This document shows positions 1 through 13,545 of a stretch of DNA of 21,365 nucleotides, piece after piece. The notes beneath the pieces were generated by a model. It ran no database searches, was not told where the DNA came from, and worked only from the letters and a program-made list of their open reading frames with translations. Origin of the DNA: a virus (lineage: Duplodnaviria; Heunggongvirae; Uroviricota; Caudoviricetes); the IMG/VR virus record IMGVR_UViG_2574180227_000016, one strand, 5' to 3'. Positions within the stretch are counted from its first letter, which is position 1. Every line of letters begins with the position of its first letter. Made by a program: the position numbers and the translations under genes.

Positions 1-285
1 CCCTTCACCAAAAGACATTGAGTTTGACTGCCCCGCCAGAACAACAACAAAGTAATACTCCGGTTCGCTGGTGGTGCTGATAACTGTGCCTTCTCCATCC
101 GACGGCTTCACCACCACAGGTGTGGTGACATCACCTTCCGCCGCAATGGCCTGCATCAGGGTATAAGGCGTGATGGCGACAGGGCTGCCAAATGGCTGCC
201 ACCCCTCCTTCAGTTTTTGTGTCAGTCGCTCCGCAAGGTCTGACGGCGATGCCGCCCTGACAACATCATAGTGTTTAAATGCCAT
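1..285 (-). CDS. 5' portion of a DUF1737 / SGNH-hydrolase (NanS-p-like sialate O-acetylesterase) gene; continues beyond the window start
   Basis: Reverse-strand ATG at 283-285, open to position 1. Translation MAFKHYDVVRAASPSDLAERLTQKLKEGW...YYFVVVLAGQSNSMSFGEG has a GQSN block typical of SGNH/SASA esterases. Sits downstream of Q in the late direction. Not in the ORF track because it is truncated. Confidence 0.55.
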   Translation of the reverse strand, partial: MAFKHYDVVRAASPSDLAERLTQKLKEGWQPFGSPVAITPYTLMQAIAAEGDVTTPVVVKPSDGEGTVISTTSEPEYYFVVVLAGQSNSMSFGEG

Positions 286-545
286 GGTTCTTTCCACCAT
301 CTGAAAAATAATTCTTTAAAATACCTGACATGTAATACAGAAAAAACACAAAACCATACCTTAAATAAAAACCTCATCATCAAGCAGATATGCATGGGTA
401 AACTACAAGACGAGATATAAACCACCCTGCATTTAAATAAACAATAAACAACATCAGAAAAATAATTCTGCTCTATGGTTTACATTCAAAAATATCATTT
501 ATACTTTTCAGAACATCACCAGCAAGACATAAACAAGGAAACTAA

Positions 546-881
546 ATGAAGTGGATTGTGATTGATACAGTTATCCAGCCATCATGCGGAATATCTTTTT
601 CAGTCATATGGAGTAAAATAAAATTAATAATCTGGTATCAATCGGATGCTTTCTTACCTCCTGAAAGTATATTTACACTGACTCACACAGGCATCATGCT
701 CAATAACAAAGTGCTACCTGTAACCATTTACAACGTAGTACCATTCAATAAAAAATTCTGGAATTTAATCAAAAACAGCCAGGAATGCCCTACAAATACA
801 GATAACGTATTGAATGAATGCTTTAATAACCGTTGCACTCTGCAAATATGTCCTTATGGACTAAAACAACAAAGTCCATAA
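546..881 (+). CDS. hypothetical protein, AT-rich, oriented against late transcription (possible moron)
   Basis: 111-aa ORF with AAGGAA 5 nt upstream of the ATG and a hairpin just downstream. Composition is unusual and no family is recognised, so it may be non-coding. Confidence 0.25.
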
Positions 882-899
882 GGAGTTTACTCACATCTG

Positions 900-936
900 A
901 CAAAATCAATATAAACAGCCCCTCCGGAGAGGGGCT
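900..936 (-). terminator. candidate stem-loop terminator (AGCCCCTC-CGGA-GAGGGGCT)
   Basis: Perfect 8-bp stem with 4-nt loop at 917-936. On the - strand it is followed by a moderately T-rich tract (GTTTATATTGATTTTG). Confidence 0.3.
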
Positions 937-1176
937 GGAGAGTGGCGCTATGTGCCATTGCATGGTGCCGGGTGCCTCCCGGTGAGTTCAGTATCAGCAC
1001 CTGAACCCGCACAGAAAGGATAAGGGTCGGTGACAAAACACCAGTTGCTGATTGCCCCTCCGCACAGGGGGATTCACCATGCCAGTTTCTTTTAACAAAC
1101 TCCCCGCAAACCAGACAACAGTCAACCGCCTGAATTGTGAGGCATTTAAAAATTTCAACGGGTAACTGATACCCTG

Positions 1177-1329
1177 CTAATCGCCTGATGCTTTCTTTTT
1201 CAGCAACGGGAAAGCAACAACCACCACACCCGCCACCAGCACACCGTCAGCCAGCACTGACATTATCCGGCTGCTGAAGTCCACCATCACCACCAGAAAC
1301 AGCAGGAGCGCAACCACAGCCAGACGCAT
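1177..1329 (-). CDS. small hydrophobic membrane protein (50 aa)
   Basis: Manual translation MRLAVVALLLFLVVMVDFSSRIMSVLADGVLVAGVVVVAFPLLKKKASGD. ATG lies 8 nt after the stop of the upstream TerB-like gene. Under the ORF-track length cut-off. Confidence 0.3.
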   Translation of the reverse strand: MRLAVVALLLFLVVMVDFSSRIMSVLADGVLVAGVVVVAFPLLKKKASGD

Positions 1330-1337
1330 TTTTACCG

Positions 1338-1769
1338 TCACAGATGATTCTCCAGACGAAGGCCCAGGACACCGGCAATCTCTTCCAGCACCTTGCGCTC
1401 TTCCGGCTCTATTTCGCCGTCTGCTTCGGCAATGGCCACCGCCACATCCAGCACGTCTTCCGCTTCACGCGTATCGTGTTTCACATCCTCGATCTCACGT
1501 AACGCCGCTCGACGACCAATTTTAAAGTTCGTATCCAGCTGACCGATAATGGTTGCGCTAATCGCATTAATTTCTGACGTAAACGCGGACAACGCAGGCT
1601 GGTTACGCAAGACCTGCTCGATCTTCGCTTTCTCTGAAGCCTCACATTCACCATCTGCATAGGCCACCAGATAGGCAGCATTAATAACCGCCTGTGCCAG
1701 ATCACGTTTCTCAAACTTTTTAATTTCCACTGCCGCTCGGCGGGCTTTTTTACCAAAAATACCAAACAT
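1338..1769 (-). CDS. TerB-like (tellurite-resistance TerB fold) protein
   Basis: Start set at the internal ATG (MFGIFGKK...) preceded by AAGGAA. Two copies of the TerB-type A-x-A-D-G-E motif (LVAYADGECEASEK and AIAEADGEIEPEER). Confidence 0.6.
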   Translation of the reverse strand: MFGIFGKKARRAAVEIKKFEKRDLAQAVINAAYLVAYADGECEASEKAKIEQVLRNQPALSAFTSEINAISATIIGQLDTNFKIGRRAALREIEDVKHDTREAEDVLDVAVAIAEADGEIEPEERKVLEEIAGVLGLRLENHL

Positions 1770-1937
1770 CGTGACGTTCCTTTGGGTGGGTGAGCCAACG
1801 CCCGGGAGCGATCTGCCCACAGAGAAAGTCACACTGACCACTCCGTAAGCTCACCCCCGAAAGGCTCTGTGGTTGATATGCGCCGGGCGTGGCGCAGATA
1901 CAAAAAAAGCCCGCCGAAGCGAGCCTGATAATAAATC

Positions 1938-2012
1938 TGGAGCGGGTAGCGGGAATCGAACCACGATAAGAAGGTTAACAGCCTTCCGTAATGACCTTTA
2001 TACGACTGACCC
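1938..2012 (-). pseudogene. degenerate tRNA-like sequence (tRNA-Gly-like scaffold, GUU in the anticodon loop, unpaired acceptor and T stems)
   Basis: Reverse complement reads GGGTCAGTCGTATAAAGGTCATTACGGAAGGCTGTTAACCTTCTTATCGTGGTTCGATTCCCGCTACCCGCTCCA. It has U8, a D arm, an anticodon stem GAAGG/CCTTC with loop CUGUUAA, a TTCGATT T-loop and 3' CCA, but the acceptor and T stems do not pair. Confidence 0.35.
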
Positions 2013-2058
2013 AAATAAAAAAAGCCACCGTTGCAACTTAAGAGTCACTAACGGCAGC
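2013..2058 (-). terminator. rho-independent terminator just downstream of Q (tR'-like candidate)
   Basis: In - strand sense: GCTGCCGTT-(17-nt loop)-AACGGTGGC followed by TTTTTTTATTT. The 9-bp stem includes two G-U pairs. It lies 18 nt after the Q stop. Confidence 0.5.
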
Positions 2059-2075
2059 TTACCCTCTAATTATGG

Positions 2076-2594
2076 CTAAATGGCTAATTGCATGTCAAGG
2101 CTTTTAACAGCAACATGCTTAACTTTCTCAACACGTTTACGCATTTTGAAAGCATTTTGCATTGGTTGGTACAAAACAAATAATGACGCTTTCAGGATAT
2201 CGTCAATTTCGTTTCTACAGGTTGCCAGTGAAGGTTTTCTCCATCCCTCGCCACCGCGTCCACACATCTTGCGTGGCTTTGCAGTCGCGTGATAGTAGGA
2301 TGCAATTGCTCTCTTAGATGAACCATGAGCGTAGTAGCTGAGGAGGATGCCAAAGGCTTTCTTGTCAATGTACATGACGGAATCGACGACCTGAGAAATC
2401 AACATTCCATCATCATCATTACACATTGGTCTTGTCATAACTCTTCCCGGCTCTACGCTCTCCATGAACTTCGCTATTACGCTGCTCATGCGCTTTTCCA
2501 GACGACCTGAATAAACCCATGCGCCCCACAGTTCAAGCCAGCCATTCAGCCAATCGTGCTGTTCTTTGGTGAGGTTTAGTTCTCTTATGCCCAT
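2076..2594 (-). CDS. Q: late-gene antiterminator Q (Q82/QuuD-type family)
   Basis: 172 aa with a WLELWGAWV...RPMCNDDDGMLI...YYAHG pattern resembling QuuD-type antiterminators. AAGGGAGAAG RBS. Positioned at the end of the nin region before the late genes. Confidence 0.7.
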   Translation of the reverse strand: MGIRELNLTKEQHDWLNGWLELWGAWVYSGRLEKRMSSVIAKFMESVEPGRVMTRPMCNDDDGMLISQVVDSVMYIDKKAFGILLSYYAHGSSKRAIASYYHATAKPRKMCGRGGEGWRKPSLATCRNEIDDILKASLFVLYQPMQNAFKMRKRVEKVKHVAVKSLDMQLAI

Positions 2595-2637
2595 GCGACT
2601 TCTCCCTTGTTATCTGGAATGGTTTTTACTGAGAGCG

Positions 2638-4039: not shown

Positions 4040-4723
4040 TCAGTAGCGATGCAGTGAAGGCGGCAACTCTTTGTTCTTAAGCCTTTCCCATGCCAGAAGG
4101 TTCGTCGGCCCGTCAGGCTCATAAATATCTATATCCCGCGTGTGATTAATTAAAACGCCCCTCGCCCTCCCGATGGTATACGAGAACTCATAGCCGTAGT
4201 CGTGGCATATGCCGGAATAGCCAGACTGAATCAGTTTTAATGCGGGATACAACTCACGGAACAATGCCTGTGAGCGGTTGGCATAATCCCACAGCCATAC
4301 AAGGCTGTCTGTTTCTTTTGCGGAAAGCCCGTTGGGCTTCTTCTCTTGTTTGCCAGTATTTTTCTCGCACTGGCTGAAATAGCAGTCTTCCAGTTTTTCG
4401 AACACTTCCCACGCCCGATCGGTTTCGAGCATTTTTGCATGACGGGCTGCGCCGCGTTCTGTCCATAGGATGAGGGAGCGAACGTTACGGGCAATTTTCA
4501 CAGAGTAGTTAAAAGCTACTCTGTGCTTGAACTCACGTAAAGTTTCACCTTCAAGTTTGAAGAAGTGTTTTTCCTCAATGAAACGACCTTTGTTTTCGTG
4601 GTGATTCTGGCGAATACGAATAGCTTCTGTGCCGTAAAGGTGCGCCAAAAGTTCGGTAGTGATAACGGGGATCTGCTTGTAAGTAATCGTGGAGAGTGTT
4701 TCAACAGAAACTTGAGTTGTCAT
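4040..4723 (-). CDS. nin-region DNA-binding/antirepressor-like protein (ORF6N/Roi-like)
   Basis: 227 aa. N-terminus [33 protein letters not shown] resembles ORF6N-type antirepressor domains. Preceded by a 277-bp structured intergenic region. Confidence 0.45.
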
Positions 4724-4884
4724 AATGACGCCCTCGAGTGGTTTCTAAACTATCACCACCGTCAGGTTCCTAATCATCGGGTGGCGAGACGTACAGGGTT
4801 AGGAACTACCGGGAAACCAACCGGCGAGCTTTTCAGCTCCCCTATACGCCCCACCATAATTCAGATGTGCGTGTGCATACGACA

Positions 4885-4909
4885 ATAAAAAACACGCTCG
4901 CGGCGTGTC
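4885..4909 (-). terminator. rho-independent terminator inside the nin region (tR2-like candidate)
   Basis: In - strand sense: ACACGC-CGCGA-GCGTGT followed by TTTTTTATTG. Confidence 0.45.
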
Positions 4910-5000
4910 TCTGTCGCGGTTTCTATCCGGGGTTCCTAATCCCGACGCCAGATTTTGCTGGCGCGTGAGGAATATAGCCCCGAATAAATCATCACGTCAA

Positions 5001-10151: not shown

Positions 10152-10493
10152 ATGGCGTTCACTGACCTTGAATATCAAGCGGTCAAAAAAGAAGTTCACC
10201 AATTCATTGAAAGCATAAGGCCGCCTGAACATATCCGCAATGAACTGGATATTGTTTATAGCATCAATGACCAAACGATAGATATCGGCGAACAGCGCCC
10301 CGTGTGGCAGGGCAACCCAGGTGAAACAAACATCCTGCCATCAGCAAGAATCAAGTACATACGTTCTCTGGATAGATGGAAAATCTATTGGATGCGGAAG
10401 GATATGAAATGGCATCAGTACAGTACTGAACTTTCGCTGACTGATGCGCTTGAGCTTGTGCGTGCTGACCCGGATTGCTGCTTCTTCGGATGA
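10152..10493 (+). CDS. hypothetical protein co-transcribed with cI (cargo gene A, 113 aa)
   Basis: GAGGAGGA RBS directly after the cI stop. Tryptophan-rich C-terminal half (WKIYWMRKDMKWHQY). Flanked by a 15-nt direct repeat. Confidence 0.6.
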   Translation: MAFTDLEYQAVKKEVHQFIESIRPPEHIRNELDIVYSINDQTIDIGEQRPVWQGNPGETNILPSARIKYIRSLDRWKIYWMRKDMKWHQYSTELSLTDALELVRADPDCCFFG

Positions 10494-10563
10494 GTGAAGA
10501 GACGTTTGGATGATGGATGGTCGCAGAGATGCTCGTAGAGCATACAGCGATGCAGGAGAATTT

Positions 10564-10998
10564 ATGGCACTTAATTTAGAAAGAATATCTTTTATAACCC
10601 CATTTGATAGCAGCGAAGAACCCAACCAACCGACGCTTAATTTTACATGCAATGAATTTCCTGCGCGGCTATCAATTGATTTCAGGGTTGGTATGATCGG
10701 GTTGAAACCAAATTCAAGATATAATTTGGGTATTATGGTAATCCCCGCGCACCTAATTATAAAAAAAGGTGAGGAAATTCAATTCCCTGACGGCTCTTCG
10801 GAATCAGTTTCACTTTTCATCGATACGAAAGATAGCCATTTTGAAACAGGGGTTGGCGGACAGGTAATAGTAACATTGAAAGAAATTAGGGTCCCAGCTA
10901 AAGGGCTGTATAGTGTTATAGGGATATTGCAAGATAATGAAGACCCTAAAAATGAACTTCATAAAAATGAATCATTTTTCACCGTAGAGCTATTATGA
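10564..10998 (+). CDS. hypothetical protein (cargo gene B, 144 aa), AT-rich
   Basis: AGGAGA RBS 5 nt before the ATG at 10564. No TM segment and no recognised family. Confidence 0.55.
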   Translation: MALNLERISFITPFDSSEEPNQPTLNFTCNEFPARLSIDFRVGMIGLKPNSRYNLGIMVIPAHLIIKKGEEIQFPDGSSESVSLFIDTKDSHFETGVGGQVIVTLKEIRVPAKGLYSVIGILQDNEDPKNELHKNESFFTVELL

Positions 10999-11615
10999 GT
11001 GACGACAGTAATTTAAATAATCATGGAAAGCAAGACACCAACATATCTGAAAGCCGGAGGTTGAAGGTTGTTGGCGGTTCTGATTTTGAGGCTGAATTTG
11101 ATAATTCTCCCACCAAGGTGCAAAATAATTACATAAAACCGCCACAAACGGAGGAAGAAGTGGGAACGATCAGCAGAGAGGAACTTGATGCTCGCTTAGC
11201 TGCTAATAAAGCAGAGATGGAGTCTATTGCTTCCTCCATTAGGGCTGACATGGCTCTATCTCGTGAAAGCGTTAATGTCCAATTTGCATCACTTAATGCA
11301 GCCATAAGCTCTCTATCGTCCAAGATCGATGGAAAGATGGATAGCGCTGCTGGCGATATAAAAGCAATTAATGGGAGATTCGAAGGAATTCAAGGACAAA
11401 TAACAGGGGTTAATACCGCAATTAGTGGTGTTCAGTCGGGTATTTCTATACGATTAGCCATTTTTAGTGTCATTATCGCTGTAATAGTTGCGATTCCCGG
11501 GCTGGTATCAGCTTTAAAGTCAGACCACGCACCTTTGCAACAGCCTTCCACTTTGCAAGCGCCGCCACAAAATACCCAGCCAACAGACAACAAAAAAATC
11601 ACTCCCCAGCATTAA
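10995..11615 (+). CDS. hypothetical membrane-anchored protein (cargo gene C, 206 aa)
   Basis: ATGA overlap with gene B. Polar N-terminus, repetitive Ser/Ala/Ile-rich central segment, one predicted TM helix (IRLAIFSVIIAVIVAIPGLVSAL) and a Pro/Gln-rich tail. Followed by a strong terminator. Confidence 0.6.
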   Translation: MSDDSNLNNHGKQDTNISESRRLKVVGGSDFEAEFDNSPTKVQNNYIKPPQTEEEVGTISREELDARLAANKAEMESIASSIRADMALSRESVNVQFASLNAAISSLSSKIDGKMDSAAGDIKAINGRFEGIQGQITGVNTAISGVQSGISIRLAIFSVIIAVIVAIPGLVSALKSDHAPLQQPSTLQAPPQNTQPTDNKKITPQH

Positions 11616-12495: not shown

Positions 12496-12556
12496 CTTGT
12501 GTTGGTCGCCAGAAAATGAGATTAGGCAGCAAACCACTTATTTGAGAGGAATTAAT

Positions 12557-13180
12557 ATGTCATCAATCCGCTTAACTACGAGAATGAAAGAGGAAATCGC
12601 TCGTAACGCTTTAATTAAGTCTGGGGTTTTCACTGAACTTGAAGAAGTAACAAAGTTAAAGAACCAGCTTGCACTTGACGCCAGAGTTATTGCGTTTGGC
12701 GGTAAAAAGAAAACTGAGGAAGTGGATCAGTTATCATCCAAGTTGGTAGCTATAAGTGAAGAACTTGAAAAGATGGGATGTTCATTTTACTCATACGATG
12801 TTAGTTCTACTTCAATTTATCTGACTGTATCTGGCAGAAGGGTTGGATGGCATTCATATGGGAAAGACGGCAACGGCAAAGATATATTGCTCCCTACTCC
12901 GACCAAAGATAAATGCATGTTTGACGCAGAGCACGAAATAACAAAAAGGTTTGATGAAATCTGCGCATTGCAACAAAAACTTGAAGCCAAGAAAAAGGAT
13001 ATCGAATCAAATGTATGGGCTGCTTTAAACTCAGTCACAACAGTTAAGCGATTTATTGAAGTTTGGCCTGAAAGCAAAGAATTGCTACCAAAAGAAGCAG
13101 ATAAAGCAAGTACAGCACTTCCTGCTTTACGGGTAGAAGATTTGAATAAGATGATTGGACTTCCTTCCGAGGCCGCATAA
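12557..13180 (+). CDS. hypothetical protein (207 aa), AT-rich cargo between N and cIII
   Basis: Start placed at the internal ATG with GAGAGGA RBS (the track ORF begins with TTG at 12497). Lysine/glutamate-rich, no recognised family. Confidence 0.55.
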   Translation: MSSIRLTTRMKEEIARNALIKSGVFTELEEVTKLKNQLALDARVIAFGGKKKTEEVDQLSSKLVAISEELEKMGCSFYSYDVSSTSIYLTVSGRRVGWHSYGKDGNGKDILLPTPTKDKCMFDAEHEITKRFDEICALQQKLEAKKKDIESNVWAALNSVTTVKRFIEVWPESKELLPKEADKASTALPALRVEDLNKMIGLPSEAA

Positions 13181-13377: not shown

Positions 13378-13404
13378 TATGTGTAAATAAATAAGGAGCA
13401 CACC

Positions 13405-13545
13405 ATGCAATATGCCATTGCAGGGTGGCCTGTTGCTGGCTGCCCTTCCGAATCTTTACTTGAACGAATCACCCGTAAATTACGTGACGGATGGAAACGC
13501 CTTATCGACATACTTAATCAGCCAGGAGTTCCCAAAAATGGATAA
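13405..13545 (+). CDS. cIII: CIII (FtsH/HflB inhibitor)
   Basis: Manual translation [46 protein letters not shown] (46 aa) matches lambda CIII over its length; AAGGAG RBS. Under the ORF-track cut-off. Confidence 0.8.
   Translation: MQYAIAGWPVAGCPSESLLERITRKLRDGWKRLIDILNQPGVPKNG

Follow-up and report, generated by a model that had tools for sequence, protein, structure and literature searches.

The locus raises the question whether the stretch between the late antiterminator gene Q and a NanS-p-like esterase gene of an E. coli prophage is the slot which holds the stx genes in Stx phages, and what it holds here. The window, i.e. the whole stretch of DNA analysed, comprises 21,365 nucleotides. 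A first-pass annotation of it had proposed the stx slot with a TerB-like gene, a small membrane protein gene, a hairpin terminator and a reverse-oriented ORF as cargo, all expressed on Q-dependent late transcription. According to our comparisons, the locus is probably the accessory-gene (moron) slot with which the late operon of a lambdoid E. coli prophage begins; it holds three separately regulated and previously described modules: the gene pair tciA-tciB, an sRNA of the STnc100/PasD family and iraL.

Identity of the slot

Read along the minus strand, the order is Q, pR'-like promoter, tR' hairpin, hybrid tRNA, second terminator, tciA, tciB, STnc100/PasD sRNA, AT-rich island and start of the DUF1737 esterase (Table 1).

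Table 1 Features of the slot, listed along the minus strand (positions in the window)
Feature	Position	Strand	Evidence
Late antiterminator Q, 172 aa	2076-2594	-	PF06530, E=1.3e-25; PHROG 943, E=3.3e-93; 84% nt identity to q of Stx2c phage 1717
Putative pR'-like late promoter, TTGACA-18-CATAAT, overlapping the end of Q	2069-2098	-	11/12 consensus match, best in the 2.7-kb region
tR' candidate, long hairpin 2058-2024, then U7 2023-2017	2017-2058	-	RNA fold
Pseudo-tRNA, tRNA-Asn 5' part joined at the T-loop to tRNA-Gly 3' end	1943-2012	-	Rfam tRNA, 32.6 bits (gathering score 29)
Second intrinsic terminator, stem 1926-1907 and T run, between tRNA remnant and tciA leader	1899-1926	-	Terminator scan and fold
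tciA, TerB-family protein, 143 aa, acidic, soluble	1338-1769	-	PF05099, E=3.9e-16, 59.8 bits (cutoff 24.4); PHROG 632, E=3.2e-69, full length
tciB, DUF3927 small protein, 54 aa, two hydrophobic segments	1177-1341	-	PF13064, E=4.8e-20; PHROG 1470 'TciB-like', E=1.6e-24; hydropathy
STnc100/PasD-family sRNA, terminator hairpin 937-916	907-1111	-	Rfam RF02076, 137.6 bits (gathering score 47), model positions 1-206 (full length)
iraL, RssB anti-adaptor, IraM family, 111 aa, convergent with the late operon	546-881	+	NCBIfam NF007393, 162 bits (cutoff 121)
iraL promoter and 5' UTR: -10 TATACT 500-505 (assigned by eye), TSS equivalent 513, 33-nt leader	400-545	+	Identical to CFT073 from about -113 to -2
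DUF1737/SASA (NanS-p-like) esterase, start at 285, N-terminal 95 codons, runs off the window	1-285	-	PF08410, E=5.6e-17

Two parts of the window align with Stx2c phage 1717, positions 1989-2607 with Q, pR' and tR' (84% nucleotide identity) and positions 2-1140 with the esterase start, an iraM-like gene and STnc100 (72%). In the phage, these alignments sit on either side of stx2cAB. The sole replaced block is 1141-1988, which comprises tciAB with leader and terminator and the greater part of the pseudo-tRNA; phage 1717 has three tRNAs and stx2cAB there instead. By DNA homology on both sides, the stretch from Q to the esterase corresponds to the slot of the stx genes in Stx phages, which bears out the position proposed from the layout of Q, tRNA-like element, cargo and esterase. 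No toxin ORF for stxA or stxB was found in the slot with the ORF list and the profile search; the slot ORFs were assigned to TerB and DUF3927. By position, the slot is of the Stx-phage type, but the prophage is not of the Stx-converting kind, stxA and stxB being absent from the slot.

Gene order and orientation are common to the window and the stx locus of phages 1717 and 2851 (Q - tRNAs - stx2cAB - STnc100 - iraM-like gene - nanS-p esterase). Shared are the Q family and the pR'/tR' region and, downstream, the sRNA, the reverse-oriented iraM-family gene and the esterase start. The differences concern the cargo ORFs (tciA-tciB instead of stx2cA-stx2cB), the tRNAs (one degenerate hybrid instead of three intact genes) and the anti-adaptor, which is of the IraL type in the window (99% to CFT073) and a more divergent copy in the Stx2c phages. 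Escherichia phage JLK-2012 (O55:H7 DEC5E), annotated with Q - tRNA Asn/Thr/Gly - tciA - tciB - yjhS esterase, has the same Q family as the window. Leader, terminator, tciB and sRNA are alike in both (96.7% nucleotide identity over window positions 951-1962), but JLK-2012 kept all three tRNAs and has no iraL island. The same order was found in STEC1590, SCU-104 and the potB prophage of CFT073 as well as in JLK-2012, the locus of SCU-104 being 98-99.9% identical to the window.

Every feature named in the first-pass annotation was found again at or near its place (Q, tRNA-like element, TerB gene, membrane ORF, hairpin, AT-rich stretch, reverse ORF and esterase N-terminus). It had overlooked the separate tR' hairpin, and it had not recognised that its hairpin terminator corresponds to the 3' hairpin of the STnc100 sRNA, its reverse ORF to iraL and its tRNA-like element to a deletion hybrid of two tRNAs.

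Putative late promoter, terminators and tRNA remnant

For the pR'-like promoter, a function in late transcription is suggested by its placement relative to Q and tR', which is as in lambdoid phages. pR' is constitutive and terminated at tR' in lysogens (PMC7547250). SCU-104 has an identical copy of the tR' candidate, and phage JLK-2012 a conserved one; the second terminator is conserved in JLK-2012 and STEC1590. The number of terminators by itself is not significant (5 found, 2.6 ± 1.6 expected); the two relevant ones are kept in relatives. Between pR' and tciA, no promoter-like site was detected on the late strand by a simple consensus scan, which weak or non-sigma70 promoters would escape.

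Relatives carry three intact tRNAs where the window has only the Asn/Gly hybrid, and alignment with the Asn-Thr-Gly array of JLK-2012 revealed a deletion of about 159 bp in the window. No tRNA was called at this element by ARAGORN. The element was read as a hybrid remnant and not as a functional tRNA. The hybrid indicates recombination at the T-loop.

The tciA-tciB pair

The family E-values of the slot genes are far beyond chance. TciA was also matched to the TerB structure PDB 2JXU (E=6e-8 over residues 15-137), and it is 99.3% identical to TciA of phage JLK-2012 and 52.8% identical to TciA of P1. In 11 homologues, down to 52% identity, a duplicated ADG...E motif was found with G40, E46, A116, D117, G118 and E124 invariant and D39 nearly so; the motifs align with SDG..EEK and SDG..DEK of 2JXU. 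Fold family and duplicated acidic motif are thus common to TciA and TerB of the Klebsiella terZABCDE tellurite-resistance system. In contrast to that system, no other ter genes are among the annotated ORFs of the window, and here the 54-aa membrane element is a protein in its own right. A weak match was obtained with the TerB-like region of DjlA, but TciA has no J domain.

The GTG start of tciB overlaps the stop of tciA as GTGA (4-nt overlap). A membrane ORF of 50 aa had been described at this site; the ORF is present, but the 50 aa count from an internal ATG, and 54 aa are annotated in RefSeq. From the gene overlap and from rare fused TerB-DUF3927 ORFs we infer that TciA and TciB may interact; the fused ORFs carry little weight, since they look like rare frameshift variants and are possibly artefacts.

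The arrangement of the pair matches tciA-tciB-tciC of phage P1, with a TerB-family TciA followed by a TciB-like small protein and tRNA genes nearby. The window differs by having no tciC; P1 is not lambdoid, and its tci genes are not behind a Q-controlled pR'. The P1 genes tciABC are non-essential (PMC10695390). The tci names used here rest on similarity only, and a literature search gave no paper testing the function of prophage TciA/TciB or reporting their induction, nor an experimental report of tellurite, colicin or phage resistance for prophage TciA. With PADLOC no defence system was matched, TciA giving only a sub-threshold hit to PDC-S48 and TciB and IraL none; therefore no defence system is claimed.

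The sRNA downstream of the cargo

The same sRNA element was found behind stx2cB of phage 1717 and behind tciB of JLK-2012, STEC1590 and SCU-104; the copy of JLK-2012 is divergent at the 3' end (107 bits). In the conserved block upstream of position 1111 no convincing -35/-10 was seen by eye. STnc100 was located 75 nt downstream of stx2 (PMC12370729), and the related PasD adjoins the esterase gene (bioRxiv 10.64898/2026.05.13.724894). Transcription as a discrete, Hfq-associated sRNA is known from reports on other copies than that of the window, PasD of EPEC and STnc100 of STEC and Salmonella.

iraL and the esterase

The GC content falls to 28-35% over about 300-900, compared with 50-57% in the flanks. 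For the reverse ORF in this island there is no Pfam model, and it was resolved with NCBIfam and PHROGs. Its product is identical in 110 of 111 residues to the characterised IraL of CFT073 and 62% identical to IraM of K-12. In K-12 the iraM promoter carries a PhoP box. Such a promoter was rejected for the window, where the upstream region of K-12 iraM does not align at all; therefore the promoter is taken to be of the sigma70 type known for iraL. CFT073 iraL has a sigma70-type promoter with a TSS mapped by 5' RACE; the region upstream of iraL in the window is identical to it over about 110 nt, and the published RACE sequence matches window positions 513-544 at 30 of 32 positions. CFT073 IraL stabilises RpoS by binding RssB (PMC4045071). 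As only one residue differs, the same activity is assumed for IraL of the window.

The iraL locus in the potB-island prophage of CFT073 (Hryckowian et al. 2014, PMC4045071) has a promoter identical to that of the window and the same position, between the DUF3927/sRNA block and the DUF1737 esterase and downstream of antiterminator and tRNAs. In contrast, it has an antiterminator of another family, an IS200 insertion and intact Ile/Arg/Arg tRNAs, and of tciAB its slot contains a short DUF3927 ORF only, without annotated tciA, and the esterase is truncated. In SCU-104 a full-length 'SASA family carbohydrate esterase' with 98% identity is annotated, followed by holin and related genes; the lysis genes lie outside the window.

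Expression and possible roles of the slot genes

Expression of the whole slot on Q-dependent late transcription, as originally proposed, is plausible for tciAB alone, which have two terminators and no consensus promoter upstream. Because iraL is on the opposite strand and has its own promoter, identical to that of CFT073, it is not late-transcribed cargo. Late expression of the complete slot is also opposed by reports that STnc100/PasD-family sRNAs are abundant in uninduced cells, and by RpoD/RpoN binding patterns reported at the STnc100 loci of Salmonella. Most likely, tciAB, being on the late strand behind pR', tR' and the second terminator, would mostly be made when Q-modified RNA polymerase reads through on induction, like stx2. 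The strong hairpin of the sRNA could also end the unmodified tciAB transcript. TciB, whose translation would be coupled to that of TciA, may anchor or partner TciA at the inner membrane, and the pair might be a dispensable accessory that acts, while the phage grows, on envelope or metal stress, which is the weakest step of this scheme. IraL would be expressed in the lysogen from its own sigma70 promoter, bind RssB and stabilise RpoS. Since iraL is on the opposite strand, late transcription would run antisense to it after induction in order to reach the esterase and lysis genes. A silencing of iraL by this antisense transcription is pure conjecture.

A different role for tciAB would be that of lysogenic-conversion cargo: the pair would be active in the lysogen without induction, through leaky terminators or a promoter of its own that escaped detection, and would give the host a ter-like phenotype (tolerance of tellurite or colicins, exclusion of other phages) instead of serving in the lytic cycle. 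Both tci families are filed by PHROGs under 'moron, auxiliary metabolic gene and host takeover', and hundreds of E. coli prophages keep the pair intact in near-identical form. As pR' is constitutive in lysogens (PMC7547250), any leak of the terminators gives basal expression of tciAB. Furthermore, in the Stx2 phage of Sakai the tRNAs are transcribed from a promoter that lies between tR' and stx2AB, thus internal promoters do exist in the stx slot. Nevertheless, we regard this role as unlikely: tciAB are preceded by two strong terminators, the consensus scan gave no promoter-like late-strand site between tR' and tciA, and PADLOC gave no match. Full-length homologues also occur in strictly lytic phages, e.g. 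N4-like and Erwinia jumbo phages, which argues for a role during phage growth. TciB as membrane effector and TciA as its regulator could also act at the inner membrane on lysis timing or superinfection exclusion, e.g. on holin triggering or by a block of DNA entry. The position of tciAB at the beginning of the late operon and ahead of the holin-endolysin cassette, the two membrane segments of the small TciB and the tight coupling of both genes are in line with this. However, neither protein resembles a holin, antiholin, spanin or known exclusion family in Pfam, PADLOC or PHROGs, the non-essential tci genes of P1 are outside its lysis region, and many relatives have the same lysis cassette without tciAB, so that such an action appears very unlikely.

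It is extremely improbable that the slot contains decaying remains of earlier recombination events and has no function today. The tRNA indeed appears to be a non-functional deletion hybrid, and in the CFT073 slot tciA is lost, the esterase truncated and only a short DUF3927 ORF left. In contrast, tciA, tciB and iraL of the window are intact full-length ORFs with 99-100% identity to widely conserved copies, the iraL promoter is intact, and the score of the sRNA against the full Rfam model is about threefold the gathering score. The late, Q-dependent expression of an accessory tciAB pair remains our preferred reading.

Distribution and exchange of cargo

The tciAB pair is present in 803 of 5426 complete E. 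coli genomes, at up to 8 places per genome, and the block of iraL and sRNA in 1430 of these 5426. TciA/TciB and STnc100 are both very widespread in E. coli prophages. Each part of the slot bears a name in databases or papers and is common; the locus is real but ordinary. As the arrangement is very common and already annotated, the novelty implied at first is not supported. The objection that the arrangement might be common and unrelated to the stx slot applies in its first half, but the homology to phage 1717 on both flanks contradicts the second. The value of the locus is mainly annotation and context, and the copy in the window adds nothing beyond many near-identical ones that are annotated already. 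The Shiga toxin slot appears as a general and frequently reshuffled cargo position; the genes usually found there (a TerB-family pair, an RpoS stabiliser and an Hfq-type sRNA) bear on the stress physiology of the host. Among these, iraL would be the occupant expressed in the lysogen, antisense to the late operon.

Taken further, the slot might work as a toggle of convergent transcription. In lysogeny iraL would be on and RpoS raised; on induction Q-modified polymerase would pass both terminators, make TciA/TciB and silence iraL head-on or by antisense transcription, while the bracketing structured-RNA genes (tRNA 3' ends and STnc100 core) would be recombination linkers for stxAB, tciAB and other cargo. 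We consider this combined reading quite unlikely. If it were true, prophages of the tciAB type would be an ancestral or alternative occupant from which Stx phages arise or to which they revert.

As to the exchange itself, cargo is probably swapped where recombination takes place within the conserved RNA genes on either side, namely the 3' ends of the tRNAs upstream and the core of STnc100 downstream. In alignment with relatives, each end of the sRNA coincides with a mosaic joint, one at about 914 and the other at about 1140. Of 120 IMG/VR loci with the sRNA core, 13 have TciA as upstream occupant (2 more have a distant homologue), 4 have Stx2AB, about 10 a DNA methyltransferase and the remainder other genes; in 51 of the 120 the sRNA is followed by the esterase.

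Late-region layout and the stx slot

The leftmost 2.7 kb of the window correspond to the beginning of a lambdoid prophage late region, which is read on the minus strand (table). In the first-pass annotation a cargo locus between Q and the NanS-p-like esterase gene was described at 286-1769. The features of this locus were present and both positions are exact gene boundaries. The GTG start of tciB (DUF3927) and the stop of tciA (TerB family) overlap in GTGA. The reported hairpin terminator belongs to the PasD-family sRNA STnc100 (937-916). The tRNA-like element was rejected as a tRNA by ARAGORN.

Features of the late region and further elements of the window
Feature	Position	Strand	Evidence
Q	2076-2594	minus	PF06530
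Sigma70-like site TTGACA-18-CATAAT, overlapping the end of Q	2098-2069	minus	best such site of the region
tR' candidate, long hairpin followed by U7	2058-2024	minus	RNA fold
tRNA-like element	2012-1943	minus	Rfam score barely above threshold
Second terminator, hairpin and T run	1926-1907	minus	terminator scan
tciA leader, 137 nt, with AGGA Shine-Dalgarno	between second terminator and tciA	minus	sequence
tciA	1338-1769	minus	TerB, PF05099, 3.9e-16
tciB	1177-1341	minus	DUF3927, 4.8e-20
STnc100 sRNA, full length	1111-907	minus	137.6 bits, gathering score 47
AT-rich island, GC 28-35%, containing ORF 546-881		ORF on plus	GC scan
Esterase N-terminus, DUF1737	starts 285, continues off the window	minus	domain match
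ORF6N/P22AR-type antirepressor gene	4040-4723	minus	
IsrK, C4 antisense RNA, a1/b1 target sites	4777-4977	minus	each above Rfam gathering threshold
Three co-directional ORFs	10152-11615	plus	PDC-S43 (7.2e-42); PHROG 5893 and 5820
Nmad5 protein gene	12497-13180	plus	PF18757, 1.8e-70
Lambda cIII thermoregulator	13392-13450	plus	88.5 bits

The proposal that this locus corresponds to the stxAB position of Stx phages was borne out by Stx2c phage 1717, which is homologous on both flanks. Identity was 84% over window 1989-2607 (Q, promoter, tR') and 72% over 2-1140 (esterase start, iraM-family gene that is likewise reversed, STnc100). Only 1141-1988 is swapped, for three tRNAs and stx2cAB, and the homology ends 37 nt past the stop codon of tciB (window) and 46 nt past that of stx2cB (phage). 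An iraM-like gene occupies the same position in about 41 Stx2 phage records, and STnc100 lies 75 nt downstream of stx2 (PMC12370729). In phage JLK-2012 the order is Q, tRNA Asn/Thr/Gly, tciA and tciB (already so named), STnc100 and esterase; STEC1590 has a different antiterminator, tRNAs, tciAB, STnc100, iraM and esterase.

For the cargo survey, 120 IMG/VR loci with the sRNA core motif were sampled. The antiterminator, where visible, always precedes the sRNA, and the esterase N-terminus was found behind it in 51 loci. The ORF just upstream of the sRNA encodes TciA in 13 loci (distant homologues in 2 more), a DNA methyltransferase in about 10, Stx2AB in 4 and various other products in the rest; IraL, an RssB anti-adaptor, lies between sRNA and esterase in 13. 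The slot is therefore a general, variable cargo position, with tciAB among its commonest occupants. Among 5426 complete E. coli genomes the pair was nearly full-length in 803, and any match was obtained in 2363, at up to 8 places per genome. The block of iraL plus sRNA occurred in 1430 genomes, ST131 among them.

All components are already named in databases or papers, and the finding as such is already known. This applies to tciA/tciB (JLK-2012, P1), IraL (2014), Q, pR' and tR' as well as STnc100/PasD (Rfam RF02076; Zhu, Shabalina and Storz 2026 preprint; PMC12370729); TerB is one of the conserved genes near PasA/PasC that the preprint names. Small additions are the exact two-sided boundaries of the swap against stx2cAB, the hybrid tRNA and the iraL gene convergent with the late operon.

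Cargo exchange

The tRNA-like element joins the JLK-2012 tRNA-Asn, represented by its 5' two-thirds, to the 3' end of that phage's tRNA-Gly. The fusion point is the shared GGTTCGA T-loop, and tRNA-Thr was deleted by the join. This hybrid, identical in E. coli SCU-104, directly attests to recombination between adjacent phage tRNA genes. The module of terminator, leader, tciAB and sRNA was found behind various tRNA arrays and Q families, its homology beginning within the 3' end of the last tRNA.

In its composition the window is mosaic. With SCU-104 it shares 99.9% identity across 914-2700 and 98% across 1-286, but that strain carries a second STnc100 copy at the iraL position (core motifs 487 nt apart); another strain matches the iraL block at 98.9% identity. 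None of the complete genomes searched contained at least 80% of this 2.7-kb stretch at a single place. This pattern places joints in the tRNA and near 914 and 1140, which are the ends of the sRNA. We infer that conserved RNA genes serve as recombination linkers. Head-to-tail arrays of 3 to 5 STnc100 cores with a period of about 253 nt were also seen in some IMG/VR phage contigs (L019, 456-982; L030, 1809-2335; L063, 4462-5453; L001, 3507-4199).

Expression and function of the cargo

The lambdoid promoter pR' is constitutive, terminated at tR' in lysogens and antiterminated by Q upon induction (Sy et al. 2020, PMC7547250). Terminator scan and fold gave two terminators between pR' and tciA, and no promoter-like site was detected on the late strand from pR' to tciA by a crude consensus scan. 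Because of this arrangement, tciAB would be expressed late and Q-dependently, like stx2. Some basal expression is conceivable, since the scan was crude and internal promoters occur in Stx2 phage (PMC7547250).

TciA, a soluble acidic protein (pI 5.0), retains the duplicated ADG...E motif of TerB. TciB is basic, has 54 aa and contains two hydrophobic segments. The coupling of the genes, together with rare fused ORFs, suggests a membrane-tethered TerB module. This putative module resembles, by a weak match, the TerB-like domain of DjlA, which is membrane-anchored. The literature yielded no functional experiment with TciA or TciB from any phage. The pair is dispensable in P1, from which its names presumably originate. 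Homologues of TciA are present in 131 phage records, including P1, D6, N4-like podophages and Erwinia jumbo phages; because lytic phages are among the carriers, a role in phage growth is favoured over pure lysogenic conversion. Two rare database ORFs, P0007 (197 aa) and P0065 (170 aa), have a TerB domain fused in frame to a DUF3927 membrane segment. Such fusions could have arisen by frameshift, or they may be a natural indication that both proteins cooperate.

The reverse ORF of the AT-rich island was assigned to iraL by sequence comparison. Its product belongs to the IraM family by NCBIfam (162 bits, cutoff 121), is 62% identical to K-12 IraM and shares 110 of 111 aa with the CFT073 potB-prophage protein annotated as IraM in RefSeq. 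The latter is the IraL of Hryckowian et al. 2014, which binds RssB's N-terminal domain and stabilises RpoS in log phase (PMC4045071). Between the published 5' end of iraL and window 513-544, 30 of 32 positions agree. Over about 110 nt the upstream sequence is identical to CFT073, including the -10 TATACT at 500-505; the upstream region of K-12 iraM did not align with that of the window. CFT073 has iraL at the same position (antiterminator, IS200, tRNA Ile/Arg/Arg, DUF3927, reverse iraL, DUF1737 remnant, holin). Thus, the first-pass view that the slot is expressed Q-dependently late can be kept, as a prediction, for tciAB, but not for iraL with its opposite strand and CFT073-identical promoter region. 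The gene runs counter to the late operon and is predicted to be independently transcribed and expressed in the lysogen. Since the esterase and lysis genes of this operon lie beyond iraL, late transcription crosses it antisense, which would switch iraL off upon induction. Members of the STnc100/PasD family were reported to be abundant in uninduced cells.

Early region

Outside the left 2.7 kb lies a canonical early region with NinG, Roi, ORF6N/P22AR antirepressor, DNA methyltransferase, P, O, cI-like repressor, N-like gene, lambda cIII thermoregulator, bet/exo and integrase. IsrK, C4 and a1/b1 lie just upstream of the antirepressor gene; judged by these matches, they form with it a putative P1/P7 immI-like antirepressor control module within the nin region. 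The three ORFs directly behind the cI-like repressor occupy the rexAB position of lambda. One encodes a DUF3024 protein matching a PADLOC candidate defence family, the other two have no assigned function, and the group is possibly lysogen-expressed defence or exclusion cargo. In the pL operon, the gene for the Nmad5 (nucleotide-modification-associated domain 5) protein stands directly behind that of the N-like antiterminator. The presence of the cIII thermoregulator confirms the orientation of this operon and lambda-like early regulation.
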